Source of the DNA: an uncultured virus (IMG/VR IMGVR_UViG_3300047476_001538)
Taxonomy: Duplodnaviria > Heunggongvirae > Uroviricota > Caudoviricetes
Length of the DNA: 64,000 nucleotides
Virus record (IMG/VR): IMGVR_UViG_3300047476_001538
Span: 1-64,000 of that record
Strand: one strand, 5' to 3'
Part shown: positions 16,126 through 62,539 of the stretch, one piece after another
Layout: each line of letters opens with the position of its first letter
How positions within the stretch are numbered: position 1 is the stretch's first letter
Notes under the pieces: model-generated
Told to the model about the DNA's origin: nothing
Database searches by the model: none
Seen by the model: only the letters and a program-made list of their open reading frames with translations
Program-made: the position numbers and the translations under genes

Positions 16126-19100
16126 ATGAATATACAAGAATTGTCTACGTTTAGCCTTCGTGACTCATTGAAGTTTCACGACGAACTCAATCCTGCTCTA
16201 TGGGACGAACACGAGCAGTTGAAGCCCGAAGTCAGAGAAAAGCTGCTTCAGATTGCAGAGGATTTTCAGGAATACCTTGGAGTCGACAATCTGGATCTTA
16301 AGGATATTACGTTGTCTGGCTCAAATGCCGCCTTCAGCTATAACAAGCACAGTGACATTGATTTACATTTGGTGGTGGATATGCCAGACGATGAGGTATA
16401 TCGTGAGTTATTTGATGCCAAAAAGTATGCCTATAACGATCAACATGATGTAAAAATAAAAGGATCGCCCGTTGAATTGTATGTTCAAGACGCCAACGAA
16501 GAGCATTATTCTCAGGGTATCTATTCTGTGATGAATGACGAATGGATTGATGTTCCAAAAAAACGCTCATTGGACGTTGATGATAGCAGCGTAAAAAACA
16601 AGTTTGAGGACGTTAAACGTCACATAACTGATGCCATCAATTCAGATGACTTTGATACGCTCTCTGGTGTTCACAAGCGTATCAAAGCAATGCGCCAATG
16701 TGGATTGGAAAAGAATGGTGAGTTTAGTATTGAAAATCTGACGTTCAAGATGCTCAGAAACGAGGGATGGATTGAGAAATTGCTCAATGCCAGAAACAAA
16801 GCTAAAGACAAAATGCTCAGTCTTGCTGAAAAGAACAAGAAGAAGCAAAAAAGAATATATGGGTTTAGCACACCAGAATTACTACAATCTGACGTAACCA
16901 ATACTTGGGACGGTGTGTCTGATAGCACTCAAGATTTTTTGAATGAAGACGTAACCAATACTTGGGACGGTGTATCGGATAGTACTCAACAATTTTTGAA
17001 TGAGAAAGATTCTGAATCTCATAAAGAGGTAATCAAGGACTTCATTTTGTTTTGTAAGAAATACCTAAAGATAGCCAAGTTACCGAAAGTAACACTAAAG
17101 AAGGATGCTAAGTGGTCATCTGAACACAAGACGTTTGGTTACTACAATCCAAATGACAATAGCCTGACAATCAATCTGGCTGGCAGAAACATTGTTGATT
17201 CGTTAAGAACCATTGGTCACGAATTAGTGCATTGTAAGCAATTTGAATCAGTAGATATGCCAACCAATTCTGGCGAAACCGGCAGTGCAGCAGAAAATCA
17301 TGCTAACAGTGTTGCTGGCATACTAATGAGAGAATACGGACAACTCCATCCAGAATTATTTCAAATGCCAGTATTAGCAGAAGCATCAGGGTACATTCCA
17401 ACGGCGGCGCAAGCACATGATCCGAGATTTGAAATGGCATTGAGTTGTGATGTTCATCCTGGTACATTGGGCAGAGTGGCTAACGCATTTGATTTGAATA
17501 CTGATTCACAAGGTAAACCACAGATTGCTAATCCTAATGGCCGAGTAGTCAGAGAAAACTGTATTGAAGAGCAAACATTGTTTGAATCGTGGCAAGATTT
17601 CAAGAGTCAAGAAGAATTGATCGAAATCTTCGATAAAGAGGTTGTCTATGATTCCGTCAAGGACATGATTGAAAAATTTCACAATCGTAACAAAGAGTAT
17701 GTTTATTCGCCATTCACTGATGTGGTTCAATCTCCGGCAATGAAGAGTAATGATTTATTTGCAGTACGTGGCAGAAATAAAAAAGACAAATCAATGGAGT
17801 ATCATTTGGTCAGCACTCGCCATGAAAACGGCAAGATAGGTGATAGTTCACAATGGAATAATGAGGCCCTAAAAGATGCTATGAAGTTCGTTATTGAGGA
17901 CGCAACCAACTTTGTCAATAAAGGCTCTCGTATTAAATTAATGACTGATGATGCTGCGTTGTATGATCAGTATCTTAGAATTGCTAATCTGATGACACAA
18001 CGCATCAATAGAGAAAGGCAACATGGCGGAGAATTTCAAGTAATAGAGGCTGGAAAGACTAATTCAATCGATGGTCAATATTTAGATACTATTTTGATCA
18101 GAGGAACACCAACGAAAAAAATGGAGTCGCTTCGGAATGACCAAACCAAAACCAGCTACATCCCCAACGATATCAATAAGCTAACCTTTGAATCGTTTGA
18201 TCACTATCGCCGTTGGTGTCAATCTCCAAAAACCAATAGCAACAGAAATCCAATGTATCATCCTAATAGATACCAAGGTATTTTTATAGACAGTAAAGAT
18301 TTGCGTGAGACAAACGATATATTCACGAAAAGAAAGCAACAAGGAAAGGAATTTTCAAATGAATTCCTATCACTTGATGATCGTGAAAATGTTGCTTTAA
18401 AAGTAGGTAATAAGATTTCTGTATTATCGTGTATCGTTGCACCCACTGATAAAATTAGCAGAATTGAGCTATCCGGTTTCGTTACTCCTAAAGAGATAGC
18501 AAATCTACTGCTATCAACCGATGATAAGATTGATGCCATTGAATTTACCGATGGCACACAATATCCTGAAAAAGCACAAGAAACTATTGTAGATAATATA
18601 AACCTTGTCAATACTGTATTCTTTCCAGACAAACACACAGCAGATTATGCTATGACCGCAACTGAATTACTGTTATGGGGAATGGAAGGAAAAGGGTGGA
18701 AAATTGAGCGATACATGAGTGAATCTGCTGATAATTTGGAAGAATCACTTTGGGAAGAACTTCAGAATCACAAAAGTGGTGATAATGTCAACAACTTCCA
18801 AAAATGGTTTGGCAATAGTAAAGTGGTTGACGACAACGGCAATCCTCTCAGAGTTTATCATGGAACAGCCGGTGATTTCCCGTCTTTTAGTTCAAAATTT
18901 CAGGGTAAAACAACCGGTGCTACTAGCTCCAAATCAGGATTCTTTTTTACATCATCACCAACTACAGCAAAATCTTATGCTGACTATGCAGCATTAAATG
19001 CAAAAGTGCAACAACTATTGGATCAAGCTGATGCTGCTGAAAAGAAAGGTGATTGGGATTTGTATGATGAAAAGATTCAACAGGCCGAAGAACTTGACGC

Positions 19101-22008
19101 CAGTTTTGGTGATCCAAAAAACAGAGCGCAAGGGCAATCTACTATTCCGGTATTCTTATCTATTCAGAACCCAATAATACTTGATGCTCAGGGTGAAAAT
19201 CCATCTGGTATTGGTGGTATTGATCCGTTGATTAAAAAAGCTAAATCAAGAGGACATGATGGCGTGATTATCAAAAATTTTGATGATTCTGCTGGACTTT
19301 TTAATGATGTATCCGATCATTACATTGTATTTAATGCGAATCAGATAAAGTCTGCCATTGGCAACAAAGGCTCTTACAATCCTGATAGCGATGAAATTGT
19401 AAACGAAAATCAGAATAATTTTAAATCATGGTTTTCTGGATCTAAGATAGTTAATCCGGATGGCACACCAAAGATAATGTATCACGGAACACACAAAGAT
19501 TTTTCTTCTTTTGTTAAGACCGCCGGATCAAAAGCAATATTCGTATCAAGTGATCCTAAATTTGCGAAGGATTATGCTATTGGAAGTGGTGGCAATATTC
19601 TTCCTGTGTACATTCGATCAGTAAAGCCATGGGATTATTTGGATGATTCAGATAATCAAGCACTCCAACACTATTTGGGATTATCCGACGAGGATATAAA
19701 ATGGTGGCAGGGATTTGATGAGGGAGAACTTTACATGGCAGCAGTTAGGGGAAAATGGGATGCCATTGAATCAGACGAATTTCAGAAATTTCTCCAATCA
19801 AATGACTATGATGGATTTTATGTTATCGAAAATGACGCTAGAAATTTAGGAGTATTTAATGCAAATCAGATAAAGTCTGCCATTGGCAACAAAGGCTCCT
19901 ACAATCCTGATAGCGATGAAATCGTAGATGAAGCTATCTCCAAAACCGGCGAGTATGGAAAAGTAGTAAAAATAGTCAAGCAATCTATCGTAGGAGCGGT
20001 TCAACAATTCCAGAAAAGATACCCTGAAATCAGAGAAAGTAATATGTCGTTGAAGGAGCATTATTCGGCAATGCAACCATTGCTTGAACGAAGTTTGGGT
20101 GACAATTTCAATATGTACTTCGACACGCCTGTTAGATTTGAAGAACTAAGTCAAGGTCGTGGACAATATAACAATGACGGAACTATCACGCTCAGTAGCG
20201 ATTTTACAAAAACTTTGACTCGGACATTAGTGGATGCATTGTTTGATTGGTCGCCTGAACCAGCCAGCCACGATGAGCGGTTAAACAAATACGTCGATAT
20301 TAGCAAGTTCACCGAATACGAAGAGTTAGCACAAGACCTCTTTCAAACGAGACCTCATGCAATCAATGACCTCGTTGAAACATTTATTCACGAATATGTT
20401 CACGCCGAACAGCACAAAAGAATAGCTCAGAAGAATACTAAAACAGGCAAATTTATGCCCAATCAATACTATTCGTATTTGCAGCGCAATCGGGCTTTAT
20501 TTGCTAAAGCCGTTCAGAACTTAGAAACTGATGAAGATTGGCAAGCGTATCTATCTTCTCCTCAAGAGATAACGGCACACGCGCATGATCTTGCTAATAA
20601 AATAATACAAGGTGCTCTGTTTGGACAACAGATTGATAATATCAGTCCGGAAGAGGCTGATATTTCCATGAAAATACTAAAGTCCACCTTGCAGCAGGCG
20701 GCTAACTACAATGTACTACCCAAATACCAACAATATGATATCTTTGACCGCAACAACAAGCAACATAGAAAAATCGTTAATAGATTCTTGAAGACAGTGT
20801 ATCAAGAAGTAGCTGCCGCTATTCAAACGCTACAAAATAAAGTTCAATCTGGTAATTTATCAGAATCACTTGGTTCACCTTATCCATTGAATCAAGGATT
20901 AAATCTTGATAGTGTTGTATCATATACATGGAAAGATGAAAATAATCTTAAAGGTAGTATCGGATTCATGCGAGGTGGATATGACGAAGATTGGGAAATA
21001 ACATTCAATGTAGGTGGAAAATTTAATATTACCAATAAAGGTGATGCATTCAGAATATTCGCCACGGCTAAGGATGCTGTTAAAAGATTTATGACCACGC
21101 CGCAAGGTAAAGGAGCAGATAGAGTTTACTTCTCTGCCAAAACATCTGAACCAACCAGAGTGAAGCTGTATGATAAGTTAGCTCAAATGATGGTGAAGAA
21201 TGGATTCAAATTGCATCATACTGAAATGGAAGGCAATCAGAAGTATTATTACCTTGATACGCCAAATCAAGGTAAAGAAGTAAAAGAATCACTTGATAAT
21301 ACACTGCTTGAAGTATTAAAGAATCCAGTAGATCACAATTCATTTAGTGATCTATCAGATATGGTCAACTCACAAAATAAAGGAAAAGCGATGAGCGGTC
21401 ATACTAATGTTATGGCGACTCCAGAAATGAGGAAAGAAAATACATACATTATCAGATTCATGGATAATGATCGTAATATTCAATATCATATCTGCACACT
21501 TGGAATGGATGGTGGTCAACGAAAAAAAGCATCAGATGTAGATCCAAAAATAGGATTGGATGCGTTGAATATTATCTTTCATGATGCTAAGTTTTATCTT
21601 GAAAAGAAGATGCCAGTGTTGATCATAGCCCCAGATAATAAACGTAAACACAGTTATCTGAAAATGGCAACATTGTTAAAAAATCAAGTAGACAGTTCAT
21701 TAAACATAGAAGATGTTGGGATGATAACAGGCGTTGATGGAGCAAGAGGACTCGGTTTCAAAATTGTTGAAACTCAGTATAACAAGCTGACTGGAATTGA
21801 TCCATCATTGGCAGAAGCACAAACAGTGGCCAAAATGATGCCAGCGGTCAAGCTGTGGAAGGCACGGGTAAAAATCAAGCAACCAAACTACATCGGATAC
21901 GTAGAAGCTCAAGTGACTGCACCGGATATGCGCACTGCTCGTAATATGCTCAAGGCGCTCTATAATGTTCCGGAGCATGAGGTTGGATCAGTGACGTTGG
22001 TCAAGTGA
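16126..22008 (+). CDS. Large polyvalent protein: Pol-beta nucleotidyltransferase + zincin + 2x ADP-ribosyltransferase-like (ART-PolyVal) + zincin + shared modules
   Basis: LSGSNA...SDIDLH; HELVH; two F.KWF..SK.V...G.P...YHGT...VFNANQIKSAIGN domains; HEYVH; modules shared with 28567, 30265, 47390, 53808. Confidence 0.85.
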   Translation: MNIQELSTFSLRDSLKFHDELNPALWDEHEQLKPEVREKLLQIAEDFQEYLGVDNLDLKDITLSGSNAAFSYNKHSDIDLHLVVDMPDDEVYRELFDAKKYAYNDQHDVKIKGSPVELYVQDANEEHYSQGIYSVMNDEWIDVPKKRSLDVDDSSVKNKFEDVKRHITDAINSDDFDTLSGVHKRIKAMRQCGLEKNGEFSIENLTFKMLRNEGWIEKLLNARNKAKDKMLSLAEKNKKKQKRIYGFSTPELLQSDVTNTWDGVSDSTQDFLNEDVTNTWDGVSDSTQQFLNEKDSESHKEVIKDFILFCKKYLKIAKLPKVTLKKDAKWSSEHKTFGYYNPNDNSLTINLAGRNIVDSLRTIGHELVHCKQFESVDMPTNSGETGSAAENHANSVAGILMREYGQLHPELFQMPVLAEASGYIPTAAQAHDPRFEMALSCDVHPGTLGRVANAFDLNTDSQGKPQIANPNGRVVRENCIEEQTLFESWQDFKSQEELIEIFDKEVVYDSVKDMIEKFHNRNKEYVYSPFTDVVQSPAMKSNDLFAVRGRNKKDKSMEYHLVSTRHENGKIGDSSQWNNEALKDAMKFVIEDATNFVNKGSRIKLMTDDAALYDQYLRIANLMTQRINRERQHGGEFQVIEAGKTNSIDGQYLDTILIRGTPTKKMESLRNDQTKTSYIPNDINKLTFESFDHYRRWCQSPKTNSNRNPMYHPNRYQGIFIDSKDLRETNDIFTKRKQQGKEFSNEFLSLDDRENVALKVGNKISVLSCIVAPTDKISRIELSGFVTPKEIANLLLSTDDKIDAIEFTDGTQYPEKAQETIVDNINLVNTVFFPDKHTADYAMTATELLLWGMEGKGWKIERYMSESADNLEESLWEELQNHKSGDNVNNFQKWFGNSKVVDDNGNPLRVYHGTAGDFPSFSSKFQGKTTGATSSKSGFFFTSSPTTAKSYADYAALNAKVQQLLDQADAAEKKGDWDLYDEKIQQAEELDASFGDPKNRAQGQSTIPVFLSIQNPIILDAQGENPSGIGGIDPLIKKAKSRGHDGVIIKNFDDSAGLFNDVSDHYIVFNANQIKSAIGNKGSYNPDSDEIVNENQNNFKSWFSGSKIVNPDGTPKIMYHGTHKDFSSFVKTAGSKAIFVSSDPKFAKDYAIGSGGNILPVYIRSVKPWDYLDDSDNQALQHYLGLSDEDIKWWQGFDEGELYMAAVRGKWDAIESDEFQKFLQSNDYDGFYVIENDARNLGVFNANQIKSAIGNKGSYNPDSDEIVDEAISKTGEYGKVVKIVKQSIVGAVQQFQKRYPEIRESNMSLKEHYSAMQPLLERSLGDNFNMYFDTPVRFEELSQGRGQYNNDGTITLSSDFTKTLTRTLVDALFDWSPEPASHDERLNKYVDISKFTEYEELAQDLFQTRPHAINDLVETFIHEYVHAEQHKRIAQKNTKTGKFMPNQYYSYLQRNRALFAKAVQNLETDEDWQAYLSSPQEITAHAHDLANKIIQGALFGQQIDNISPEEADISMKILKSTLQQAANYNVLPKYQQYDIFDRNNKQHRKIVNRFLKTVYQEVAAAIQTLQNKVQSGNLSESLGSPYPLNQGLNLDSVVSYTWKDENNLKGSIGFMRGGYDEDWEITFNVGGKFNITNKGDAFRIFATAKDAVKRFMTTPQGKGADRVYFSAKTSEPTRVKLYDKLAQMMVKNGFKLHHTEMEGNQKYYYLDTPNQGKEVKESLDNTLLEVLKNPVDHNSFSDLSDMVNSQNKGKAMSGHTNVMATPEMRKENTYIIRFMDNDRNIQYHICTLGMDGGQRKKASDVDPKIGLDALNIIFHDAKFYLEKKMPVLIIAPDNKRKHSYLKMATLLKNQVDSSLNIEDVGMITGVDGARGLGFKIVETQYNKLTGIDPSLAEAQTVAKMMPAVKLWKARVKIKQPNYIGYVEAQVTAPDMRTARNMLKALYNVPEHEVGSVTLVK
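16891..17004 (+). repeat. 57-bp in-frame tandem duplication
   Basis: DVTNTWDGVSDSTQxFLNE twice. Confidence 0.85.
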
Positions 22009-22034
22009 TAAATATGAGAAATGAGGAGATCATA

Positions 22035-22916
22035 ATGACTAGATCACTGTACGAAGACTTGTTAAAAGGATACAGAGACAATCTGATTCGGCGGCAGGCA
22101 TTGACAGTCACTGAATCAAGTTCACTGAAATATATTCTGAAGATGGCTGGGATCAATCATTTGTTTGAAACGACTTCTGAAGTTGATACATCAAAGTCAG
22201 GGTCAGAAAAAATACTTAACAGAAGATTGGTGGAATCAGAGATCATCGATGAGTTAAGAGGCGTTAAAAAATACCATGATCTAACATCCGATCAATTGAT
22301 GGCACAGATTGCTCAAGATTATAATTTGCAAATTTTAGGTTCTGGATTATTTGGCACAGTTATCCAGACCAAAAACCCCGACACCGTAGTAAAGGTATTT
22401 GAAAGTGATGATGCTTATTTGCGATTTTTAGAAATGGCAAACGCTCATCCTAATGTACATTTCCCAAAAGCCAAAGGATTGCCCAGACTTATGACTGCCT
22501 TTTACAAAAGGCACTCAATCCAGCCGGACAAATTCGTCGTGCTTGAATTAGAAAAACTATATCCATTGGACGATGATATAGCTGATTTTTGTGAATCTCT
22601 GGCATATCAGACGATTGATGAGGAGCCACTGGTCCTACCAGATGGCTCGCAGAACTCAAAACACATGACATATGCACAACTGATTGGAGATTACCCGTGG
22701 ATATCAACATTAAAACGGGCTATGAATATGATCATTGACTGGGACTTAGGAGAAAATGATATGAATGCGGGTAATTTTATGAGGCGGAAATACGGAACGA
22801 TTGTTATTATGGACCCGGTTTATGATCCAAACAGCGTTGCTTGGTCAGTGGCAGCGTTGCCGGCAAACCAACCAAAAAACGTACAGGGACCACATTATAG
22901 AAAAAAATCAATTTAA
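22035..22916 (+). CDS. Protein kinase, T7 gp0.7-like, with N-terminal extension
   Basis: GSGLFGTV Gly-loop, VVKVF, HFPK, DMNAGNFM catalytic loop, IMDPV; ATAAATA promoter and GAGGAG RBS. Confidence 0.75.
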   Translation: MTRSLYEDLLKGYRDNLIRRQALTVTESSSLKYILKMAGINHLFETTSEVDTSKSGSEKILNRRLVESEIIDELRGVKKYHDLTSDQLMAQIAQDYNLQILGSGLFGTVIQTKNPDTVVKVFESDDAYLRFLEMANAHPNVHFPKAKGLPRLMTAFYKRHSIQPDKFVVLELEKLYPLDDDIADFCESLAYQTIDEEPLVLPDGSQNSKHMTYAQLIGDYPWISTLKRAMNMIIDWDLGENDMNAGNFMRRKYGTIVIMDPVYDPNSVAWSVAALPANQPKNVQGPHYRKKSI

Positions 22917-23071: not shown

Positions 23072-24751
23072 ATGTCACACTTCTCCAAAATCCTTGAATC
23101 ACTGATGAACAATGATGAAACAACTGCTTATCAGTTGTTTCATGAATTCGTCGTGGAATCCAGTAGAGCAATCTACGAAGAGAATCAACTTGATGAATAC
23201 TTAACACCGGACGAAGAAGCAGAGGTAGCCAAGTGGAAGAAAAGAACACCCCAAGCGACAAAAGCGACCAACCATTTCTTCGGCAGTGATGAGATAGAAG
23301 ATATCTATCGCCCATTGGTAGATTTAGATGGTAAATCCGAAGTCCATGCTGCTATTGAACAAGATATTGGTATTCCTATTTCAAGTGATGATTATAAGAA
23401 AGGAATGGTAAAGGACAAAGATGGCAAGCAAATCCGTATTGGTAGTGCAATAAGTGACCCAAAACTGCGAACTGCGTTTAAGACCGATCCGCTAAGAAAA
23501 GGGCAATCAACAAAAGCGGCATCAAGAAATGTTAGAATTACTCGTAGTCCCACTGGAGTGGCCGGACAAACATCTCATGGGCAATCATGGGAAGGTCATT
23601 CTTGTAAGAATTTCAACGATGGCTCAAATCGGCGCTATCTCTGTCACGAAGTAGAACACGGCACAGTGGTTGCTTATCTTACCGACAAAGAATCAGGAGA
23701 AGAAATAGCAAGAGGGACATTTCAGCCATATACGAACAAAGAAGGCAACTACCTATACAGATTGGACTCGTACTATGGTGAAAATAATGCTCAGTTCAAG
23801 AAATACTTGAAGCAATTGGAAAGAGAACTATCACAACCGCATTCTGGTAGTCTGATGTATGACATACATCCCGATGTATATAATGATAGTAGAGTTAAAA
23901 AATCTCTTCCTTATGGTGCAACTGCCGAGGATTATAAAAACTCCCTTGAACAAGGAGAATTGGAGTTAAATGAAATACCAGAAGAATTACGAACGCCAGC
24001 GATATGCAAAATCGCTGTTAGTCAAGATGGCACGGCATTGAAATATGTGCCAGAAGAATTGCCAGAATACGCAAAACTATGCAAAATCGCTGTTAGTCAC
24101 GACGGCTGGGCATTGAAATATGTGCCAGAAGAATTACCGGAATACTTAAAGATATGCAAAATCGCTGTTAGTCAAGATGCCTGGGCGCTGCAATATGTGC
24201 CAGAATACCCAAAACAAATGAGAACACCAACATTATGCAAAATCGCTGTTAGTCAAGATGGCATGACGTTGGGAGATGTGCCAGCAGAATTGAGAACACC
24301 AACGTTATGCAAAATCGCCGTTAGCCAAAATTGGCGGGCGTTGTATTATGTGCCGGAAGAATTGCCAGAATATGCAGATATATGCAAAATCGCTGTTAGT
24401 CAAAAAGGGTTTGACTTGAGCCGTTTACCAAAAGATTTGAGAACACCAACGCTATGCAAAATCGCTGTTAGTCAAAATGGACTGGCGTTGCGACTCGTGC
24501 CAGAAGAATTGCCAGAATATGCAGATATATGCAAAATCGCTGTTAGTCAAGATGGCAGGGCGTTGGTACAGGTGCCAGAAGAACTAAAAACACCGGAAAT
24601 ATGCAAAATTGCTGTTAGTCAAAATGGTGTGGCGTCGCAATATGTGCCAGAAGAATTACAAAATGAAGTGCTCAGATTTTTGTACAACAAGAAAAACAAC
24701 AAGGATAATTTTTCTAAAAAACAGTTGACATCATCAACATTTTCTGTATAA
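23072..24751 (+). CDS. DUF4116-like repeat protein with head-core-like N-terminus (paralog of 57257-58906)
   Basis: MSHFSKILESLMNNDETTAYQLFHEFVVESSRAIYEE; ~9 CKIAVSQxGxALxxVPxEL repeats; ATAAATA at 23043. Confidence 0.85.
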   Translation: MSHFSKILESLMNNDETTAYQLFHEFVVESSRAIYEENQLDEYLTPDEEAEVAKWKKRTPQATKATNHFFGSDEIEDIYRPLVDLDGKSEVHAAIEQDIGIPISSDDYKKGMVKDKDGKQIRIGSAISDPKLRTAFKTDPLRKGQSTKAASRNVRITRSPTGVAGQTSHGQSWEGHSCKNFNDGSNRRYLCHEVEHGTVVAYLTDKESGEEIARGTFQPYTNKEGNYLYRLDSYYGENNAQFKKYLKQLERELSQPHSGSLMYDIHPDVYNDSRVKKSLPYGATAEDYKNSLEQGELELNEIPEELRTPAICKIAVSQDGTALKYVPEELPEYAKLCKIAVSHDGWALKYVPEELPEYLKICKIAVSQDAWALQYVPEYPKQMRTPTLCKIAVSQDGMTLGDVPAELRTPTLCKIAVSQNWRALYYVPEELPEYADICKIAVSQKGFDLSRLPKDLRTPTLCKIAVSQNGLALRLVPEELPEYADICKIAVSQDGRALVQVPEELKTPEICKIAVSQNGVASQYVPEELQNEVLRFLYNKKNNKDNFSKKQLTSSTFSV

Positions 24752-27610: not shown

Positions 27611-27618
27611 GTTAATCA

Positions 27619-28554
27619 ATGAAAATCAATGATATTATTAAAGAAGACGTATCGCAACAAGAGCTATCACAAATAGAAGTTTTTGCTAATAGATTATGGC
27701 ATAAGTATGGCATAGATATTGCATTTACAAAGCACTTTTTAGATAGAGTAAACGACTCAAGAAATAAAAAACCAATCTCAGCCGCAGAATTAGTTCGCCT
27801 ATTCAAAAAAGAATACGAACGGAATGGCAAGAAAATAGCTTCGTTGGACAATGGCGAACAAGGCGTATTTAAAGACACCTCCACGGATATCAACATTCCA
27901 TTTGCTGTGAGTGATCGGAATAACGATCACGAATTATTTGCAAAAACAATAATGCGAAAAAAGAACTTCGCATCCTCAAGTCCAGTGTTTGCTGTAGAAG
28001 AAGATCCATGTTGGAAAGGCTACAAACAATATGGAACCAAGAAGAAGGGCAAGCGCACGGTTCCAAATTGCGTTCCCGTTAGCGAAGATTATGATGAATA
28101 CAATGATGAAGCTGGAATGGCAGATAATAATCTTGAGACCATCAAGCGGGCCGCAGAAGGGTTAGATGACATTATTGCCGGCGACAAAAATCTACCAGAG
28201 TGGTGTCAAGAAAAAATCGCAGTAGCCAAGTATATTTTAGTATCCGTTTGGGATTATATGCTCAGTGAAGAAAATCAAGAGATTGATGAAGATTGGCAAA
28301 AAACCAACAAAAAAGACAAAACTGATGGCATGAGCAAAAAAGCGGTAAATGCTTACAGAAGAGAAAATCCCGGTTCAAAATTAAAAACAGCGGTGACCAC
28401 GAAGCCGAGCAAACTAAAGAAGGGTAGCAAAGATGCCAATAGAAGAAAAAGTTTTTGTGCTCGCTCAAATGGTCAAAGAAAACAGCATAACATAGATTGT
28501 TCTAAGACGCCGGACAAACCAATTTGTAAGGCGAGGAAACGGTGGAATTGTTAG
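27619..28554 (+). CDS. Multi-module putative virion internal protein
   Basis: MKINDIIKE leader; HFLDRVND module; DPCWKGY...VPNCVP; basic C-terminal RRKSFCAR...RWNC module. Confidence 0.75.
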   Translation: MKINDIIKEDVSQQELSQIEVFANRLWHKYGIDIAFTKHFLDRVNDSRNKKPISAAELVRLFKKEYERNGKKIASLDNGEQGVFKDTSTDINIPFAVSDRNNDHELFAKTIMRKKNFASSSPVFAVEEDPCWKGYKQYGTKKKGKRTVPNCVPVSEDYDEYNDEAGMADNNLETIKRAAEGLDDIIAGDKNLPEWCQEKIAVAKYILVSVWDYMLSEENQEIDEDWQKTNKKDKTDGMSKKAVNAYRRENPGSKLKTAVTTKPSKLKKGSKDANRRKSFCARSNGQRKQHNIDCSKTPDKPICKARKRWNC

Positions 28555-28566
28555 GAATAATATCAA

Positions 28567-29574
28567 ATGAGAGCAAAACAGTTTGTTTTTGAATCCAAGG
28601 AACAAGAGTGGCGATATATCTGGAATCTAAAAGATTCAGAATCCCTGACTACTGAAGAATGGTGCAGAGTAGTTGAACGACATCACTGCGGAACTCTGAT
28701 TGAGAATGACGTGAGTGATAACACGAGAATATTTGAAATGCTCAAAGATTTCGGAGTGGCCAAGCCCGAGGTAGGCGAGCATTATATTCCAGTCACTGTT
28801 ATGGCAGCGTCTAGCTTGATGATTTACGACATTGACGGGCGTTGTCCCCCAGAGAGTAAGCCTCGTCTGTTGGAGTTGGTGAAAATTAAAAACGGCGATT
28901 ATTATTTTGACAACAACGGCAGAATTCAACGTTATCCACAAGAGTGGCAATCTAAGGTAATGGTAGCAGAGACTCTGTGCATTCCAAACCTTGAACAGTA
29001 CAGGGAAATGGTTACCATGCTGCGGTTGGCCACTGACTCGGATAAGTTCAATAACTTATTGACCGAATCCTTGACCAGTCCATATCCTCTGAAACTGGAA
29101 TATGCTGATAGAAGCAAGATTGATTATTCGTTCAGAACTGATTCTGATGCCAAAGGCGATATTGAATTCTGGTCAAAAGGTCAAAATTCAGAATGGGAAA
29201 TGGCCTTTACTATCGACGGCAAGGTTGAACACCAAAATAGAAATACGGGTGAGGTTTTCAGAATATTCGCCACCGCCGCTAAAAGCGTTCAAATGTTCTT
29301 GAATACACCCGAAGGTTATAATATGTCCACTCTGAACATAGAGGCCAGTACTCACGAATTGTCAAGAGTTAAACTCTACGATAGAATGGTTCCTATACTA
29401 TCTAAGCTGGGATTGAAGTTTGCCGGCACGGACAATGTCGGACAATACAAAAACTACCACTTTGTCAATCCTGATAATCCACCTCAAGCAATATCTGAAC
29501 CCAATAAAAACTGGCGAGATAGTGCTGACTGGGAATTTATCGAAAATATCCGATCTGAACGGAGAAAACAATGA
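28567..29574 (+). CDS. Two-module putative virion internal protein
   Basis: MRAKQFVFE leader; C-terminal LTESLTSPYPL...FRIFATA...SRVKLYD module shared with polyvalent protein. Confidence 0.75.
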   Translation: MRAKQFVFESKEQEWRYIWNLKDSESLTTEEWCRVVERHHCGTLIENDVSDNTRIFEMLKDFGVAKPEVGEHYIPVTVMAASSLMIYDIDGRCPPESKPRLLELVKIKNGDYYFDNNGRIQRYPQEWQSKVMVAETLCIPNLEQYREMVTMLRLATDSDKFNNLLTESLTSPYPLKLEYADRSKIDYSFRTDSDAKGDIEFWSKGQNSEWEMAFTIDGKVEHQNRNTGEVFRIFATAAKSVQMFLNTPEGYNMSTLNIEASTHELSRVKLYDRMVPILSKLGLKFAGTDNVGQYKNYHFVNPDNPPQAISEPNKNWRDSADWEFIENIRSERRKQ

Positions 29575-29789
29575 GAGCAAAAGAATTTATTACAGGTTTA
29601 ACAGAAAATGCCAGCGTTGGTGGCACAAGTAGCGGCTCTGTGGCTGCCGTTAGTATGCCATTAGGTGGCACTATTAGCAGAGGCGGATCATTATTGTCAG
29701 GTCAGTCCACCGATGAAGAATTTCCAAATACTCCTGAGCATATTCGCAAAATGGCCAAGCAATGGAAGTCAAGTAACAAGAACAAATAA
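29571..29789 (+). CDS. Small putative internal protein
   Basis: MRAKEFITGLTE leader; ASxGGTSSGSVA. Confidence 0.75.
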   Translation: MRAKEFITGLTENASVGGTSSGSVAAVSMPLGGTISRGGSLLSGQSTDEEFPNTPEHIRKMAKQWKSSNKNK

Positions 29790-29823
29790 TTTTTGCTAAA
29801 TACTCCATTACACAGGATTCATT

Positions 29824-30261: not shown

Positions 30262-30264
30262 GTC

Positions 30265-32012: not shown

Positions 32013-32014
32013 AA

Positions 32015-48931: not shown

Positions 48932-49413
48932 GAATTTCCGAAGTTATCCTTGACAAATTAAACGAAACTGCTCTATTTGAGATGGCTTTTGATAGGAAAG
49001 AAGCCATAAAAAAGTTTCAGAATCTTGACTACCAGATTCAAAGACATCTTATTAAAATAACAGCGTTCAAAGATGGGTTAAATTACCAACATCATTGTGG
49101 AGAAATCAACGGTTGGTTAGATCATCTAAATGATGTAAAATGGAACAGAACTCAATATCTTAGCAAATATATCATCATGAAATGCTTATGGGAGGGTCCA
49201 TTGGGTCATGGTGCTATTGCTGTTGAAGATGGCGTGAAAACTCTGATCAGAGTACATCGGTACAGTGTGCCGCGAAACGACTTATCCATTCACAGAATAT
49301 ATGAACTGCTATTCAAAATTTACGATGAAATGTCATTTGATTTGAGTAATGGAAACGTAAACAACATTCAGCATTACTTGACAAAAAACGGCTATTACGT
49401 ACAGAATCCCTGA
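48928..49413 (+). CDS. DUF29-like protein, paralog 3
   Basis: MRISEVILDKLNETALFE leader; HLIKI...HHCGEI. Confidence 0.7.
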   Translation: MRISEVILDKLNETALFEMAFDRKEAIKKFQNLDYQIQRHLIKITAFKDGLNYQHHCGEINGWLDHLNDVKWNRTQYLSKYIIMKCLWEGPLGHGAIAVEDGVKTLIRVHRYSVPRNDLSIHRIYELLFKIYDEMSFDLSNGNVNNIQHYLTKNGYYVQNP

Positions 49414-49621: not shown

Positions 49622-49701
49622 CTATCAAAAAGTATACTGTCTACTGGCGTATGAGACAACACTGCTCATAATAAAGGTCCAAACAGTATACTTTTTGATA
49701 G
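49622..49701. repeat. Perfect 19-bp inverted repeat enclosing a 42-nt structured loop
   Basis: CTATCAAAAAGTATACTGT / ACAGTATACTTTTTGATAG; inner TATGAG/CTCATA hairpin. Confidence 0.85.
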
Positions 49702-49727
49702 ACGAGAAAGGATTTGAATTAAACAAT

Positions 49728-51033: not shown

Positions 51034-51450
51034 ATGAAACTATTCTTAGATTGCGAATTTAATGAGTTCAAAGGTGAATTGATATCTATGGCTCTGGTGG
51101 CCGAAGATGGTCAAGAGTTCTACGAGGTGTTAGCTTGTCCTTCTCCTGGTCCCTGGGTCAAGGAACACGTTATTCCTATTTTAAATAGAAACCCAGTAAC
51201 TTTTGACATATTCCAATGGTTGTTGCAGGAATTTCTAATGCGATTTGATAGAATTCATATCGTTGCTGATTGGCCAGAAGACATCAAACACTTTTGCGAT
51301 TCACTGATAACTGGACCAGGTGTGCGATTGAATACTCCGCCTCTGACAATGTCAATTCATCGTTTTGATGCTGAATCAACTCTGCCACATAATGCACTAC
51401 ACGATGCCAGAGGCATTATGGAATATTGGTTAAACAACAAGTACAACTAG
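51034..51450 (+). CDS. DEDDh 3'-5' exoribonuclease-like
   Basis: FLDCEF, LISMALV, WV..HVIP, HNAL.DA. Confidence 0.85.
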   Translation: MKLFLDCEFNEFKGELISMALVAEDGQEFYEVLACPSPGPWVKEHVIPILNRNPVTFDIFQWLLQEFLMRFDRIHIVADWPEDIKHFCDSLITGPGVRLNTPPLTMSIHRFDAESTLPHNALHDARGIMEYWLNNKYN

Positions 51451-52016
51451 CGGTAGCCAATCTTCATGAATCTGTCGTAAGGATTGCCCTCAACGTCTTT
51501 TACTTCAAGCTCGCCCACAAATAGTGTCTTAGATAGCGGATACTCATTATTAAAATCAGTTAGTGTTTCTATTCCATTAGACCGTTCTTGATGATTCTTG
51601 CCTTGTAATGCTACAACGGTGCCCGCTGGAATATTCTCAAGCCACTTTGAGCCGAGAATGTCGTTGGTAGATGAATTAATGATAAGAATATTATCGCCTT
51701 GAAATTCAATGTCATTGGCATCTTTGCAAACAGAAACAATATCAGAATAACCTTTTTTCTTGACAAGAGAATCAAAATAAGTTATCTTGCGTTGATTATT
51801 ATCAACACAGATTATTGTATCAAAGGTAATGTCAAACTGATTTATTACAATAGCTGTAGCACCATACCATGAACCAAGTACATAAATATTATCAAACTCA
51901 TTGAGACCCATTGTAACTAGGGTCTGGCTTAGCCACATTTTGGAAATCAATAGATCACGCGATACGGAGCCTTTAGGGGTATCTGGTGATGATTCAATAA
52001 TATCTTTAATTTTCAT
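51447..52016 (-). CDS. SAM-dependent methyltransferase-like protein with internal-protein leader
   Basis: MKIKDIIE leader; SK.WL, VLGSWYG, RFMKIG. Confidence 0.7.
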   Translation of the reverse strand: MKIKDIIESSPDTPKGSVSRDLLISKMWLSQTLVTMGLNEFDNIYVLGSWYGATAIVINQFDITFDTIICVDNNQRKITYFDSLVKKKGYSDIVSVCKDANDIEFQGDNILIINSSTNDILGSKWLENIPAGTVVALQGKNHQERSNGIETLTDFNNEYPLSKTLFVGELEVKDVEGNPYDRFMKIGYR

Positions 52017-53125: not shown

Positions 53126-53821
53126 ATGAATTTTTCCTTCGCATTCGATGTTGACGGCACTTTGACGTTAAGTCGTCAAAAAATTGATTCGGATTTTGCA
53201 GAGTGGTTTCTCAATTGGGTCAAGAAGCATAAGGTATACATTGTTACTGGCAGTGATTATGAAAAAACTGTAGAACAATTGGGACAAGAGATATGTGATT
53301 CGGTGGCTGGTATCTTCAATTGTTCTGGTAATGCTTTTTATATAAAGGGCGAATTACAATCATCCAATGAATTTAAGCTAAACGACAGCCAAATGGAGAT
53401 ATTAAATCGTTATTTGTCTAAGAGTCCATTTCCTCTGAGAACCGGAAATCACTTTGAACAACGACAAGGAATGTGTAATTTTAGCGTGGTTGGAAGAAAT
53501 GCCACCATAGAAGAGCGGCAACAATATTCTGATTATGATGGTCGGGTTGCGGAACGTCAGCGTATTGTTACTCAATTTAAGCATTGTTTTCCTGAGTTGG
53601 ACGCAGTTCTTGGTGGTGATATTAGTATTGATATTTTTCCGAAGGGCAATGATAAGAGTCAAGTTGCTGAAAAATTGAAGCCATTTGTTTATTTTGGTGA
53701 TCGTGTATTTCCGGGTGGAAATGATTACACTATTGCTAAGGAAGCAGAGGCTCATTATAACGTGAAAGATTGGCAAGAAACTCGGAGGATTATAGAATTG
53801 TATTACAATGAGAGCATATGA
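53126..53821 (+). other. HAD-IIB phosphomannomutase-like
   Basis: FDVDGTLT, VTGSD, NFSVVGR, GG.ISIDIFPKG.DK, FGD...GGND. Confidence 0.88.
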
Positions 53822-54341
53822 ATTTCTCAATGAGGTTTTAAATTCCGATGTACCCACAACAACCGATGATGATTTAAGAAAATCAATTATTCAAACGTAT
53901 GGTAAGAATATCATCTCTGGGCATACTTCTGTTTGGCAATCTGAAATAATGAAAAAAACCGGCGTGTGGGTTGTGAAAATAATGGATCGCTCTCGGCAGA
54001 TTCAATATCATATTATGTCAGATGATGTTGAAGCAGGAGATGTAAAAACCGCAGATCAAATTGATTCCAAAATAGGATTAGATTGTATGAACATTATTGC
54101 CAAGGATGCCTTGAGTTCCTTGAAAAACGGATATCCTGTGATTATTCTTGCACCAACCGAAGATAAAATAATGTCATATAGTCAAATGGCAAAAATGCTA
54201 TTGAGGTCAAAGAAAAGCGAGTTTAAACTGACCGAGCCATTTACTACATTGGGACTTGATAATATCCAAAGATGGGGCATTAAGATTTTTGAAAACTATA
54301 TTCCTAAATTGTCTGATGTGAAGTATGCACAGAAAAGATAA
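53808..54341 (+). CDS. Putative internal protein; stand-alone copy of a polyvalent-protein module
   Basis: MRAYEFLNE leader; IQYHI...D.KIGLD..NII..DA...PV.I.AP matches ~21310-21790. Confidence 0.8.
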   Translation: MRAYEFLNEVLNSDVPTTTDDDLRKSIIQTYGKNIISGHTSVWQSEIMKKTGVWVVKIMDRSRQIQYHIMSDDVEAGDVKTADQIDSKIGLDCMNIIAKDALSSLKNGYPVIILAPTEDKIMSYSQMAKMLLRSKKSEFKLTEPFTTLGLDNIQRWGIKIFENYIPKLSDVKYAQKR

Positions 54342-54349
54342 ATACAGTA

Positions 54350-54988
54350 ATGAGAGCGCATGAATTTATAAATGAACGTGAGGAACCCATCAGTATTGGA
54401 CCAAAAGGCAAACAAATGGTCGAATACGATGGTCTTGTATTACAAATAAAAGATGATGGTGTTACCGTTACCGTCCATGCTTATCCATCTATAGATGATG
54501 CTCAAAATTATAAAAACACAATGGCGTATGTAGTATTTGATCGTGATCATAATACCTTAATTGCCGATGATCTTGCAGTATATGATCCATACAAAGGACA
54601 AGGCGTTGCGAAAAAAATGTATGATTATATTAAATCCCTTGGATTTCGCATTTTAGCTAGCGATGATCAAACAGCGGCTGGAAAGCATTTTTGGGAGAAG
54701 AATAAAGGCAACGACGGGATTTGGGAATCAGAAGAAGAAATCATCAACGAGCTAACTTTTTTTGGCAGTCAATGTACTAAGGACTGCTCCGGACATCGCT
54801 CTGGCTACCTTTGGTCTCGTCGCAAAAATGCTCAACAGGTTCCACAATCACATAGTCCATCATTTAATAAAGGTGCTGCGATTGGTATTCAACATATGCG
54901 CCAAGGTAGGAACCCAATCGGGGCAAGCGGTATCCGTGGTCAACGTGGTCGCTACAGAAAATTCATTCCGGGAAAAACAGACGAATAA
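54350..54988 (+). CDS. GNAT acetyltransferase-like + basic C-terminal module
   Basis: MRAHEFINE leader; V...YKGQGVAKKMYD...QT.AG..FW; CTKDCSGHRSGY module; ATAAATA at 54338. Confidence 0.75.
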   Translation: MRAHEFINEREEPISIGPKGKQMVEYDGLVLQIKDDGVTVTVHAYPSIDDAQNYKNTMAYVVFDRDHNTLIADDLAVYDPYKGQGVAKKMYDYIKSLGFRILASDDQTAAGKHFWEKNKGNDGIWESEEEIINELTFFGSQCTKDCSGHRSGYLWSRRKNAQQVPQSHSPSFNKGAAIGIQHMRQGRNPIGASGIRGQRGRYRKFIPGKTDE

Positions 54989-57256: not shown

Positions 57257-58906
57257 ATGTCACACTTTACTAAAATCCTTGAATCACTTATGAACAATGA
57301 TGAAACAACTGCTTATCGGTTGTTTCATGAGTTCGTTGTTGAATCCAGTCGAGCAATCTACGAAGAAGTGAATCTCACAGAAGCCAGTTATGATGGCATG
57401 ATTGCTTCAATGAAAGCTAAGTATCCCGATTTCCAACAAGAGATTGCTGATCAACTCAAGTGGGCAAAAGCTACGCTCAAGAAGGACGAAAAAATCGTTT
57501 GGTACATGAAGAACGTTGGCAATATGCTCGCTGATCAACAGGCCGGCAAGCAAGTACCTGATATAAAAGAAATTCAGAATGATCTTGGCCACTTCTTTGG
57601 CTTCAATATACCGGCGATTGATCAATATCAATTCGGTAAGAAATCATATGATGAAATCATCAATGATTTACAATCAATAGAACAAGATTGGAGTGAAAAG
57701 CAGTCCAAGCGTAATTTGCCACCCATAGAACCACAAGAAGGCGACTATGAACTGATGAAATTCCCTGATGGGAGTGCTTGGTGGTGGGTCGACAGAGCCT
57801 ATTGCGAGAAAGAAGGCAAACACGGCAAGCATTGCGGGAACGTAACTGGAAAAAGCAAACCAAATCAGCGAATATTGAGTCTTAGGAAGAACGGTCAGGT
57901 ATTACTTACATTCATCCTTGAACCTAACGGCAATTTAGGGGAGATGAAGGCATACAATAACCAGAAACCAAGTGAAAAGCTTCATCCTCAGATCATGAGT
58001 TTATTACTAAGCGACAAGGTAAAAGGCATACAAGGTGGTGGTTACTTAGCCGACAACAACTTCTCGGTATTTGATTTATCTGATGAAAACTTACAAGTAA
58101 TTCAGAATAAAAAACCTAATCTTATAAGCGATCAAATTAAAGTAAGTCCTGGTCAAGCACTACAAGCACCGGCTTGGGTAAGGAAAACATATATGAATGA
58201 GATAAGCAAACTATCAACTGGCTTACAATATCTGATTGACCCAAATACCGGTGAATACACCAATGATCCAGCTGCATGGGATAAAGCAATTCAAGCAGAT
58301 TCAAAATTATCATTGAATGTTCCGAGTAACATGATTGATCGCTACAAAGATGTGATATTGAGTGTTTTGAAAAGAACTCCCAAATTTCTCATATCACGAG
58401 CAAGCAGAGATATACGAAGGAATTTTGAAATATTGAAAGAATTTGTGCAATTGAGTTATAAAAATATAGGGTATGTTCAACCGACTACTCTGGGTTATAC
58501 TAAACTATGCAAACGCGCTGTTAGTAATGAGGGCATGGCGTTGGAATATGTGCCAGAAGAATTGCCAGAATACGCAGAAATATGCAAAATAGCTGTTAGT
58601 CAAGATCCTTGGGCGTTGCGATGGGTGCCAGAAGAATTGCCAGAATACGCAGAAATATGCAAAATAGCTGTTAGCCAAAATGGCAGGGCGTTGCATTATG
58701 TGCCGATAGAATTGAGAACACCAACATTATGCAAAATCGCTGTTAGTAATGAGGGCATGGCGTTGGTAGCAGTGCCAGAAAAATTAAGAACACAGGAAAT
58801 ATACAAAGCCGCTGTTAGCCAAAATGGCAGGGCGTTGGAATATGTGCCACCCGAAATCAAAGACGAAGTGAAAAGAGCAGTAGAACAAGAAAAACAACAA
58901 GGATAA
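57257..58906 (+). CDS. DUF4116-like repeat protein with head-core-like N-terminus (paralog of 23072-24751)
   Basis: Same 37-aa N-terminus, different middle domain (EG....HCGN...SLR...EMK...NQKP), 5 C-terminal repeats; ATAAATA at 57228. Confidence 0.85.
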   Translation: MSHFTKILESLMNNDETTAYRLFHEFVVESSRAIYEEVNLTEASYDGMIASMKAKYPDFQQEIADQLKWAKATLKKDEKIVWYMKNVGNMLADQQAGKQVPDIKEIQNDLGHFFGFNIPAIDQYQFGKKSYDEIINDLQSIEQDWSEKQSKRNLPPIEPQEGDYELMKFPDGSAWWWVDRAYCEKEGKHGKHCGNVTGKSKPNQRILSLRKNGQVLLTFILEPNGNLGEMKAYNNQKPSEKLHPQIMSLLLSDKVKGIQGGGYLADNNFSVFDLSDENLQVIQNKKPNLISDQIKVSPGQALQAPAWVRKTYMNEISKLSTGLQYLIDPNTGEYTNDPAAWDKAIQADSKLSLNVPSNMIDRYKDVILSVLKRTPKFLISRASRDIRRNFEILKEFVQLSYKNIGYVQPTTLGYTKLCKRAVSNEGMALEYVPEELPEYAEICKIAVSQDPWALRWVPEELPEYAEICKIAVSQNGRALHYVPIELRTPTLCKIAVSNEGMALVAVPEKLRTQEIYKAAVSQNGRALEYVPPEIKDEVKRAVEQEKQQG

Positions 58907-61074: not shown

Positions 61075-61128
61075 CATCTTCGTGCTACTAAGATAAAATG
61101 ATTCATTGCCCACACACGGAGACTTAAC

Positions 61129-61323: not shown

Positions 61324-61863
61324 ATGAGAGCAAAGGAACTGTTTGAAAAGTTGAATCATTACAACGACGGCACAAGAACTTTGTTTGAAAGCATTGCTGT
61401 ACCAGAAGTCAATCAAGCTCTTATAGATTGGAACAAACATCAACACAACGGAGTGTTGATAGGCGGTTGTGCTCTTAGCTTTTACGTCAGACCAAGGACT
61501 ACAATGGACGTTGATGTTCTTTTTTTAACAGACGATTCGATACCAAAAGAAGTCAGTGGTTTTAAAAGAACAAGACCTTCTGCATTTCAACATAACAAAA
61601 CACATGTTGGGATTGAACTCGTCACTTCACTGTTGATAGGAATATCACAAGAATTAACTCAAAAAGTTTTTGATACTGCGATGATCTCCGACAATGTTAA
61701 AATCGCAAGTCCATCCGCTCTTGTTGCATTGAAGCTACATAGATTTAATCGCCAAGATCAAGCTGACATAGAAGAATTGATGAATCATTATACCATCGAT
61801 TTACAAGATTGGCCACTGTCCGAAAAGGCCAAGGCGCATTACGAAAAAGTACTGACTTGGTAA
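61324..61863 (+). CDS. AbiEii/DUF6036-like nucleotidyltransferase with internal-protein leader
   Basis: MRAKELFE leader; LIGGCA...PRTT.DVD, LKL...R.QD.ADI. Confidence 0.75.
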   Translation: MRAKELFEKLNHYNDGTRTLFESIAVPEVNQALIDWNKHQHNGVLIGGCALSFYVRPRTTMDVDVLFLTDDSIPKEVSGFKRTRPSAFQHNKTHVGIELVTSLLIGISQELTQKVFDTAMISDNVKIASPSALVALKLHRFNRQDQADIEELMNHYTIDLQDWPLSEKAKAHYEKVLTW

Positions 61864-61939: not shown

Positions 61940-62539
61940 ATGAAAATTTCAGAAATAATTACCAATCCGCCCAGAGATGAATATATTGATCAATATCAGT
62001 ATCATTTTTCCGATTGCCCAACCGTTGCTACCATTAAAAATTTACAGCTAAAAAAATGCGAATCACAGGATGAAATTGAATATGGTCTGATTGATTCCAA
62101 GGACCATATAGTAGGCTATTTTTCATTAGATCGGTACGATGACGACATTTGGTCAGTTAATTTAGTTCAATTAGCACAGGCATACAAAGGAATGGGATAT
62201 GGAACATTCTTTTATGATTATGCTATCATGAACGATAAGCTAAAAATTTTATCGGATGCAACAAACACTGAAGGACAATTTGGCTCAAGAGCATTATGGG
62301 AAAGGCTAAAAAATAATCGTCGCTACGAGATAGTAGGATATGATACAAACACTGATTCAGTCATTCCTAATGCCACTTCTGAAATGATTCATAATAATAA
62401 ACCAAATACAAGATGGTTAGCCATTCCTCCATCAGAGACCATAAACGAATCAATTCAACGAATTCAGTCTCACATGAAAAAGAGATATGTGGTGTGGTAT
62501 GGTCCAGGTACCACATCTGAGACCTATTTTAATTACTGA
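61940..62539 (+). CDS. GNAT-fold protein with internal-protein leader
   Basis: MKISEII leader; YKGMGYG..FY, LSD...T.G...LW; ATAAATA at 61863. Confidence 0.65.
   Translation: MKISEIITNPPRDEYIDQYQYHFSDCPTVATIKNLQLKKCESQDEIEYGLIDSKDHIVGYFSLDRYDDDIWSVNLVQLAQAYKGMGYGTFFYDYAIMNDKLKILSDATNTEGQFGSRALWERLKNNRRYEIVGYDTNTDSVIPNATSEMIHNNKPNTRWLAIPPSETINESIQRIQSHMKKRYVVWYGPGTTSETYFNY

Follow-up and report, generated by a model that had tools for sequence, protein, structure and literature searches.

A short N-terminal tag shared by unrelated proteins of an uncultured jumbo-phage clade, a candidate capsid-targeting propeptide of T4 type

The DNA analysed here (the window, 64,000 nucleotides) represents bases 1-64000 of a single 75,771-bp viral contig, IMG/VR record IMGVR_UViG_3300047476_001538, and the element in question is a short leader-type start common to 15 open reading frames (ORFs) of the contig, 13 of them within the window and two just beyond it (contig positions 64334 and 64937). 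An earlier note on this DNA had proposed that such leaders address a set of enzymes to the virion. Completeness of the contig was estimated at 21% using CheckV, which implies a genome of ~360 kb, and the window is best explained as part of a ~360-kb uncultured jumbo phage of the T4 superfamily. Every start codon and N-terminus listed in the earlier note was recovered at its coordinates; of the three ORFs at 48010, 48455 and 48928 described there as starting with MKI, the first does so and the other two begin MRI. Two forms of the leader were distinguished, MRAxEF, MRAxQF or MRAxEL in six ORFs (28567, 29571, 31533, 53808, 54350 and 61324) and M(K/R)Ix(E/D)(I/V)(I/V) in seven window ORFs (27619, 47390, 48010, 48455, 48928, 52016 on the minus strand and 61940).

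Among the genes of the first form, that at 28567..29574 (+) joins the leader MRAKQFVFE to a 335-aa cargo of no family, the mature part of which is 30% identical to that of ORF 646 in IMG/VR locus L047, whose start is MRAKEFIIE. The gene at 29571..29789 (+), with the leader MRAKEFITGLTE, encodes a small basic protein of 72 aa (pI 9.7), and its homologues carry MRAQEFIKE in L085 and MKIHEIME in L246. At 31533..32012 (+) the leader-like start MRAHEFITPE, without a canonical hydrophobic-x-E, precedes a 159-aa cargo, and at 53808..54341 (+) the leader MRAYEFLNE precedes a 177-aa cargo of no family. The gene at 54350..54988 (+), with GATAAATAC 5 nt before its ATG, begins with the leader MRAHEFINE, continues with a GNAT-like core (residues 19-121) and ends in a basic tail that is disordered. 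In an AlphaFold2 model of this protein, residues 1-18 (tag and linker) lay outside the fold with a predicted local distance difference test score (pLDDT) of <50, and the core scored 88-94. Most of the matches listed by Foldseek against the PDB, the eight best included, were GNAT-family acetyltransferases (E 2e-3 to 3e-2); the PDB sequence search gave nothing, and Pfam matches were below cut-offs. The last gene of this form, at 61324..61863 (+), starts MRAKELFE and encodes a DUF6036/AbiEii-type nucleotidyltransferase, a doubtful member of the leader set. The AbiEii-like nucleotidyltransferase of the earlier note was confirmed through DUF6036 (Pfam, 24.5 bits, cut-off 23.6), AbiEii itself remaining at 20.3 bits, below its cut-off of 22.5.

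The second form is represented at 27619..28554 (+) by the leader MKINDIIKE and a 311-aa cargo with a C-terminal DUF6321 (Pfam). Its N-domain occurs too in the genomes of T4-like cyano-, pelagi- and methylophages; the homologue in L121 (60% identity over 117 aa) bears MRAKEFMKE instead, that of the cultured methylophage Melnitz starts (TTG) KTFLQFEQ, and the immuto and B23 homologues had no clear start resembling the capsid targeting sequence (CTS) of T4. The gene at 47390..47977 (+), with a GCTAAATAG motif ~76 nt upstream, combines the leader MKISEIVKPLTE with a 195-aa cargo. It is followed by three members of a four-member family, at 48010..48468 (+), with an 18-aa N-terminus MKIFEIILDQVSNTALFE ending LFE, at 48455..48931 (+), starting MRIFEIILDQVSNTALFE, and at 48928..49413 (+), starting MRISEVILDKLNETALFE; the fourth member lies outside the window at contig 64937. 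The first 21 residues of 48455 and 48010 are identical except residue 2 (K/R) and then diverge (DNA 48010-48075 versus 48455-48520), with 48% identity over residues 1-64 and no alignment reported beyond. These near-identical starts suggest gene conversion or, judged from the sequences, strong constraint on an 18-residue leader ending LFE. The earlier note had assigned the family to DUF29 (PF01724), an assignment left unsupported by the absence of any Pfam match at E<=0.01 (48010) or E<=0.1 (48455, 48928). An AlphaFold2 model of the 48928 family built from three sequences (pLDDT 43.5) was too poor for a fold search, and the ESM Atlas gave no usable match.

On the minus strand, 51447..52016 encodes the leader MKIKDIIE with a 189-aa methyltransferase-like cargo. 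Among its nearest clusters in the ESM Atlas is 'Class I SAM-dependent methyltransferase' (score 0.97), and Methyltransf_31 is found on 21% of members; there was no Pfam match and the PDB sequence search gave noise, and the methyltransferase-like cargo of the earlier note is accordingly kept as a lead. The gene at 61940..62539 (+) starts MKISEII, has no hydrophobic-x-E after residue 5 and carries a 199-aa GNAT-like cargo (Pfam Acetyltransf_1, E 0.0023, below cut-off; MYST acetyltransferase chains, E ~1e-3). For both 54350 and 61940 the GNAT assignment, likewise proposed before, is a lead, with Pfam matches below cut-offs and fold or chain matches at E ~1e-3 to 3e-2. PHROGs gave no name for any leader protein. 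The cargo on the contig is taken to comprise two GNAT-like proteins, one methyltransferase-like protein, one small basic protein and several proteins of no recognised fold. The tag itself probably lies outside the cargo fold, as indicated by the variable, indel-rich linker behind it and by the low-confidence residues 1-18 of the 54350 model.

The distribution of the leader was analysed by searching for the pattern [KR][AI]x[EDQ][FIL][ILVF] in every ORF of 60 aa or more in the six frames of the contig. It occurred 16 times, and in 14 of these it stood directly after a Met located 0-13 codons from the upstream stop; in the same ORFs RAxEF followed Met directly in 4/4 cases and KIx[ED]I[IV] in 7/7. 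All-versus-all BLASTP of the 15 leader ORFs linked only 48010, 48455, 48928 and 64937 (E 1e-13 to 1e-40), all other pairs having similarity confined to the first 7-17 residues. Paralogy as the origin of the common starts is ruled out by this comparison for 11 of the 15, and the description of the proteins as otherwise unrelated holds for these 11, the remaining four being paralogs. The motif [ILVFM]xE with Glu at residues 6-12 was found in 8/15 leader ORFs and in 18/105 other ORFs (Fisher p 0.004); by residue 18 it was present in 13/15, and 31533 and 61940 have none beyond residue 5, so that the leader 'usually' ends in hydrophobic-x-E, as had been stated, in eight of the 15 by residue 12 and in 13 by residue 18, these two ORFs lacking it. 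The leader was absent from all 35 ORFs starting before 15,300 and present in 15 of the 85 starting after it (p 0.005). The claim that early genes lack the leader therefore holds; equal frequency of the motif in early genes had been named as a refuter of the cargo proposal. The region at 1-15.3 kb of the window is a probable early region because of its small genes and repeated promoters, near-identical sigma-70-like sites of the form TTGACT-N16-TAAAAT standing before small genes at 1449, 3195, 6742, 9285 and 9530, and also at 11513, 13637 and 14582; the total of promoter-like sites was not above that of shuffled sequences.

The MRA form was then sought across IMG/VR with the DNA pattern ATGAGAGCANNNGAATTTAT, which fixes only residues 1-3 and 5-7 and matched at least 120 stretches, and the MKIxEI(I/M) form in a second scan; both were DNA patterns with fixed codons and each gave >100 loci, and the counts in this paragraph refer to the matches listed. 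In the MRA scan 130 ORFs start at the pattern, ~125 of them within 30 codons of an upstream stop. Glu occupies position 9, which the pattern leaves unconstrained, in 108 of the 121 unique MRA proteins, position 7 is Ile or Met, and position 8 and positions 10-16 are variable. The tag is a unit of nine residues, M-R-A-x-E-F-I-x-E, and is sharply bounded, because Glu9 is nearly invariant and position 8 and positions 10-16 vary. The parts after residue 9 of 120 MRA proteins fell into 32 BLAST clusters (of 70, 11, 4 and 3 members, four of 2, and 24 singletons), so that no fewer than 32 unrelated families bear the tag. In the largest cluster, a family of ~125 aa, the tag is followed by an indel-rich linker, and the tail is basic and of FKGYKRK type. 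The MKIxEI(I/M) scan gave 98 unique ORFs, of which 53 are plausible gene starts, 26 of these with Glu9. Since 12 of the 53 share mature-part homology with MRA proteins (Glu9 in 10 of the 12), the MRA and MKI forms are, on this sequence evidence, interchangeable on homologous cargo. Tagged proteins in relatives include a stand-alone ART-PolyVal protein (L108, behind MRAREFIAE), an amidoligase, a GH19 hydrolase and a LysM-SLT transglycosylase.

For placement of the carriers, the family-B DNA polymerase (PolB) of the contig (32637-35291) was compared with those of cultured phages, to which it is at most 47.6% identical (best the jumbo phages Phosso, Atu_ph07, fHe-Yen9-04 and PBECO4-like), and with those of five uncultured contigs, G001-G005 (245-525 kb), to which it is 57-61% identical. 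The strict MRAxEF DNA pattern gave 17 matches in these five contigs versus 0 for a reversed-pattern control. Three of the five are complete, and each of these encodes a T4-type Peptidase_S77 prohead protease adjoining a Gp23-family capsid protein. In G003, the one contig in which a T4-type portal was looked for and where it is present, the order is portal, 74-aa protein, 285-aa protein, protease, scaffold-position protein and capsid protein, the same as the 20-67-68-21-22-23 order of the T4 head module. Of fifteen additional carrier contigs examined (55-178 kb), 14 are only 15-51% complete, implying genomes of 340-530 kb; the sole complete small one (55.8 kb) has a match without Glu9 and no S77 protease. 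The S77 protease was found in 3/3 complete and 3/17 incomplete carrier contigs and the Gp23 capsid protein in 3/3 complete ones. The tag is a mark of one uncultured jumbo-phage clade (~350-520 kb) with a T4-type head. A megablast search of window 27000-33000 against phage records gave no match. The 524-kb relative G002 has two full-length family-B DNA polymerase copies, at 18725-21430 (+) and 508482-511187 (-), near opposite contig ends.

The N-termini of T4 proteins (NC_000866) provide the model for a function. They read MKTYQEFIAE in ipII and ipIII, MKTFKEF.. in ipI, MAKINELLRE in gp24, MELITELFDE in Alt, MLKEQLIAE in gp22, MEGLIE in gp67 and MNEPQLLIE in gp21. According to the text available of PMC9958956, T4 gp21 cuts small N-terminal peptides off IPI-III and Alt, 10 residues off gp24 and 9 off itself. 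The (L/I)xE cleavage rule used here was taken from the earlier note and from these N-termini together with the cleavage lengths given in that text (PMC9958956). MKTYQEFIAE is the T4 CTS and carries foreign proteins into heads (PMC8442874, in part), and passages of PMC12373910 describe ip genes of T-even phages as found via their signal sequence.

The reading that we favour, and consider probable by analogy with T4, is that the tag is a T4-type capsid-targeting propeptide which is removed after Glu by the S77 protease and loads exchangeable cargo into the head. In its favour are the position of the motif at the start Met, the sharp boundary at Glu9, the variety of cargoes, the interchange of the two forms, the placement of the tag outside the fold, the likeness to the T4 peptides, the restriction to one clade, the N-terminal module that two DUF4116 proteins of the window have in common with the protein in the gp68 position of relatives, and cargo types that parallel known injected proteins. 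The proposed consensus of this portable propeptide is M-(R/K)-(A/I)-x-E-(F/I)-I-x-E. The tag would bind newly made proteins to the scaffolding core during prohead assembly; the S77 (gp21-type) prohead protease would then cut after the Glu of an (I/L/V/F)-x-E site, and the mature cargo would stay inside the head and enter the next host with the DNA. A tag of only ~9 codons with a variable linker behind it could be attached to many genes, and the cargo could be swapped by recombination. Core binding, cleavage, packaging, injection and a host-modifying or anti-defence role of the cargo are what we infer from the T4 parallel. That MRAxEFIxE and MKIxEIIxE act as a general loading signal throughout the clade, by which the capsid would take up dozens of different single-domain enzymes, among them acetyltransferases, nucleotidyl- and ADP-ribosyltransferases, methyltransferase-like proteins and cell-wall hydrolases, for delivery along with the DNA, is put forward more tentatively, at somewhat short of an even chance. 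The idea of a portable address tag resembling the T4 CTS, as first formulated, therefore stands with respect to the N-terminal position, the unrelated families, the T4-like peptides and the T4-head clade, and fails or is weakened with respect to the late-promoter link, DUF29 and 61324.

Several observations weigh against a loading signal. Seven of the 15 local leaders have no hydrophobic-x-E ending at residues 6-12. The 75,771-bp contig has no prohead protease, capsid or other head genes, the missing protease being attributed to its being a 21%-complete fragment. No cultured carrier was found in four cultured relatives or by tblastn of one cargo family: the MRAxEF DNA pattern gave 0 true starts in Atu_ph07, Phosso, fHe-Yen9-04 and PBECO4, the single Atu_ph07 match reading MSATEF, and the commonest cargo family, of ~125 aa, had no tblastn match in 50,697 phage records. 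In 61324 the N-terminus MRxKE(L/I)xEKLN..NDGTRTLFES is kept across many of 112 homologues, and a sigma-70-like promoter, TTGACA-17-TAAAAT, lies upstream at 61071-61099; on both grounds its start may be an intrinsic helix and not a portable tag. The late-promoter link was sought on the contig and in the IMG/VR loci and was not found. The earlier note had placed many leader genes behind (A/C)TAAATA late promoters, a weak claim on checking, with NTAAATA within 80 nt upstream of 3/15 contig leader genes and, in the IMG/VR loci listed, TAAATA at -20..-1 in 7% of leader genes versus 9% of other ORFs, which is no enrichment. A further group of points concerns codon usage (Arg codon 2 is AGA in 8/8 Arg-type leaders versus 44% of Arg codons, 313/709, and codon 3 is GCA in 5/6 leaders versus 34% genome usage), and another a Tat-like SRRGFL(K/R)GL directly after the leader in L039:413-1294 and G003 297068-297964, odd for capsid cargo; in L039:413-1294, which has LysM and SLT domains too, TAT_signal reached 22.1 bits (cut-off 22.7).

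The last of these points, together with the lack of late-promoter enrichment, speaks for the alternative that survives best, namely that the peptide is another sorting or control signal (an export n-region, a membrane or assembly-site tag, or a degradation or regulatory tag) and no address of the prohead core. We consider it unlikely. The two Tat-like cases were the only ones among the N-termini looked at, with no systematic Tat scan made; the motif is close to the T4 gp21 substrates and restricted to phages with a T4-type head module, and the cargo consists mostly of soluble enzymes or small basic proteins.

Slightly less likely again is that the conserved start is a translation or mRNA device, with A-rich unstructured first codons on leaderless or weakly Shine-Dalgarno-led late mRNAs, and that the peptide has no sorting role. 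The AGA and GCA bias is in its favour and may reflect some selection on the start of the mRNA; a Shine-Dalgarno sequence is weak or missing in several leader genes. TAAATA was observed 4-7 nt before ATG in 8/123 IMG/VR MRAxEFI genes listed (for example in L013, L035, L036, L050 and L051) and 5 nt before it at 54350 (window 54338-54352), so that, if this is a T4-type late promoter, the mRNAs would be leaderless or nearly so. Against such a device, MRAxEFIxE and MKIxEIIxE differ in DNA, have the same physicochemical pattern and swap on homologous cargo, and synonymous variants exist (AGA/CGA, GCA/GCC/GCG, GAA/GAG, TTT/TTC). An invariant Glu codon 9 beside a free codon 8 is hard to account for by RNA, and Shine-Dalgarno-like words were equally common before leader genes (39%) and other ORFs (38%) of the IMG/VR loci.

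That the common start is a recombination linker or a relic of descent, 27 nt aiding cassette exchange or copied with a promoter-proximal segment and without function in the protein, is very improbable. The DNA of 48010 and 48455, near-identical over the first 21 codons before diverging, would suit it, as would the occurrence of leader genes in small arrays; yet the amino-acid sequence is conserved among hundreds of diverged loci that show synonymous changes, no such conservation extends to the upstream DNA, and the 28567 family keeps its leader at 30% identity elsewhere in the protein. Chance, through the frequency of MK and MR starts with hydrophobic residues in AT-rich phages, can practically be discounted, and is contradicted for the MRA class, since a loose MKIxEI pattern does catch unrelated ORFs (27 of the 53 plausible starts among the 98 listed have no Glu9) but 14/16 occurrences on the contig stand at Met, matches in G001-G005 outnumber the reversed control by 17 to 0 and Glu9 recurs in 108/121 proteins listed.

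Other genes of the window are related to the head or to proteins of polyvalent type. The ORF at 16126..22008 (+), with GATAAATAG upstream and the start MNIQEL, encodes a protein of 1960 aa with ART-PolyVal (E 3.5e-39), a weak zincin-like DUF6782 and an N-terminal nucleotidyltransferase-like region, DUF6782 and NTP_transf_2 being below their cut-offs. It combines several disparate effector domains, including ART-PolyVal, in one large polypeptide, as is characteristic of polyvalent proteins, a class predicted to be packaged and injected (PMC5512222, text available in part). It is followed at 22014..22916 (+) by a 300-aa kinase-like protein (PHROG 15752 protein kinase, E 4.9e-6) with the leader-like start MRNEEII, without Glu at position 8 or 9. 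Two DUF4116-repeat paralogs, at 23072..24751 (+), with GATAAATAC 22 nt upstream, and at 57257..58906 (+), agree in their N-terminal module and in the sequence upstream, and both stand behind GATAAATA motifs at T4-like spacing. Their first ~36 residues are homologous to the N-terminus of the protein between portal and prohead protease in complete relatives (BLASTP E 9e-7); this module, that of the protein in the T4 gp68 position, is present in G001, G002, G003 and G005, and tblastn of the G003 protein against phage records gave no match.

A permuted (two-piece) tmRNA of betaproteobacterial type was found at window 49700-49979 (+) (Rfam beta_tmRNA 102 bits, tmRNA_permuted 110 bits; ARAGORN tmRNA*), and its type hints at a betaproteobacterial host. 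The tRNA genes for Val, Thr, Asn and Gly lie at 62610-62685 (-), 62768-62842, 63667-63750 and 63851-63939. A tandem array of at least eight paralogs starting MIEY(T/I/K)VKV...HREDGPA occupies window 77-451 and 4295-6734, with an identical junction sequence before each and Pfam matches that were weak and sub-threshold. Auxiliary genes at 37558-43604, 50146-51027 and 53126-53821 encode a sugar C-methyltransferase, an SDR, a UDP-glucose-dehydrogenase-like protein, an NAD-dependent epimerase, a SAM synthetase, an RlaP RNA-repair nucleotidyltransferase and a phosphomannomutase, and may be involved in modifying DNA or surface sugars. Two genes beyond the window, at contig 65735-67084 and 72468-73757, are candidates, judged by eye from their N-termini, for a TnpB/OrfB-like transposase and an S-adenosylhomocysteine-hydrolase-like gene.

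Proteins injected ahead of phage gene expression are a first line of counter-defence, and to our knowledge such proteins are rarely recognisable from sequence outside the T-even phages. If the tag is a loading signal, a plain N-terminal pattern flags candidate injected effectors of a large uncultured jumbo-phage clade from sequence alone and provides enzymes that could be tested directly against host defences; it would also be a natural tag, the second of its kind, with which foreign proteins could be packed into capsids, and a modular, 'unfused' counterpart to the polyvalent proteins. Otherwise the conservation of a nine-residue N-terminal peptide on such a number of unrelated phage proteins would still have to be explained. 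Type IV restriction enzymes are blocked by each of the three internal proteins of T4, according to the part of PMC12373910 available. No description of the tag was found in the full-text literature searched, supplements, papers outside Creative Commons licences and ~1.7 million PMC articles being outside its coverage. The mechanism is known from T-even phages; none of the literature searched describes the variant consensus, its presence on at least 32 families, the enzyme-rich cargo or the clade.

The closest known counterparts are the T4 CTS and the other peptides cleaved by gp21, which are likewise short (9-10 aa) and strictly N-terminal, with a basic residue 2, an acidic-hydrophobic-hydrophobic core and Glu at the end. 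MRAxEFIxE has the EFIxE core of ipII and ipIII unchanged, and MAKINELLRE of gp24 parallels MKINDIIKE of 27619. In both cases the peptide stands on proteins that are otherwise dissimilar, the genes form small variable arrays, and an S77 protease and a head module of T4 type are found in the lineage; Alt is a precedent for enzyme cargo. The jumbo-phage consensus differs in being one residue shorter and in starting MRA or MKI instead of MKT; there are 15 tagged genes on 76 kb here versus three internal proteins and Alt in the 169 kb of T4, the cargo is largely enzyme-like versus small inhibitors in T4, two tagged proteins have a Tat-like signal, and the tag is so far known as sequence. In the Synechococcus phage MA01 (L132:1140-1841), a gene after the small terminase gene, with a GATAAATA motif before it, starts MKTYQELMEV, almost the T4 CTS, and CTS-like starts may be widespread in T4-like cyanophages.

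Two further systems were compared, each through the available portions of one paper. In the phiKZ-like giants SPN3US and phiKZ many head-internal proteins are also cut after Glu by a T4-related prohead protease, and a CTS-like character was noted for paralogs whose N-termini are identical (PMC5694885). These phages belong to another lineage and most of their propeptides are far longer, gp47 being cut at 79 or 111 and four others having propeptides of >100 residues; the portions available report no short common tag, and only gp45 with a 20-residue propeptide (PMC5694885). The polyvalent proteins (Iyer et al. 2017) share with the tagged proteins the effector domains ART-PolyVal, GNAT, nucleotidyltransferase and peptidoglycan hydrolase and a predicted entry into the host with the DNA (PMC5512222), and the cargo types found here (ART-PolyVal, SLT with LysM, GH19 and amidoligase) parallel accounts of T4 Alt and of polyvalent proteins (PMC5512222). 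In polyvalent proteins the domains are fused in one giant polypeptide (PMC5512222), whereas here single domains, such as the ART-PolyVal protein of L108, each bear their own short tag.

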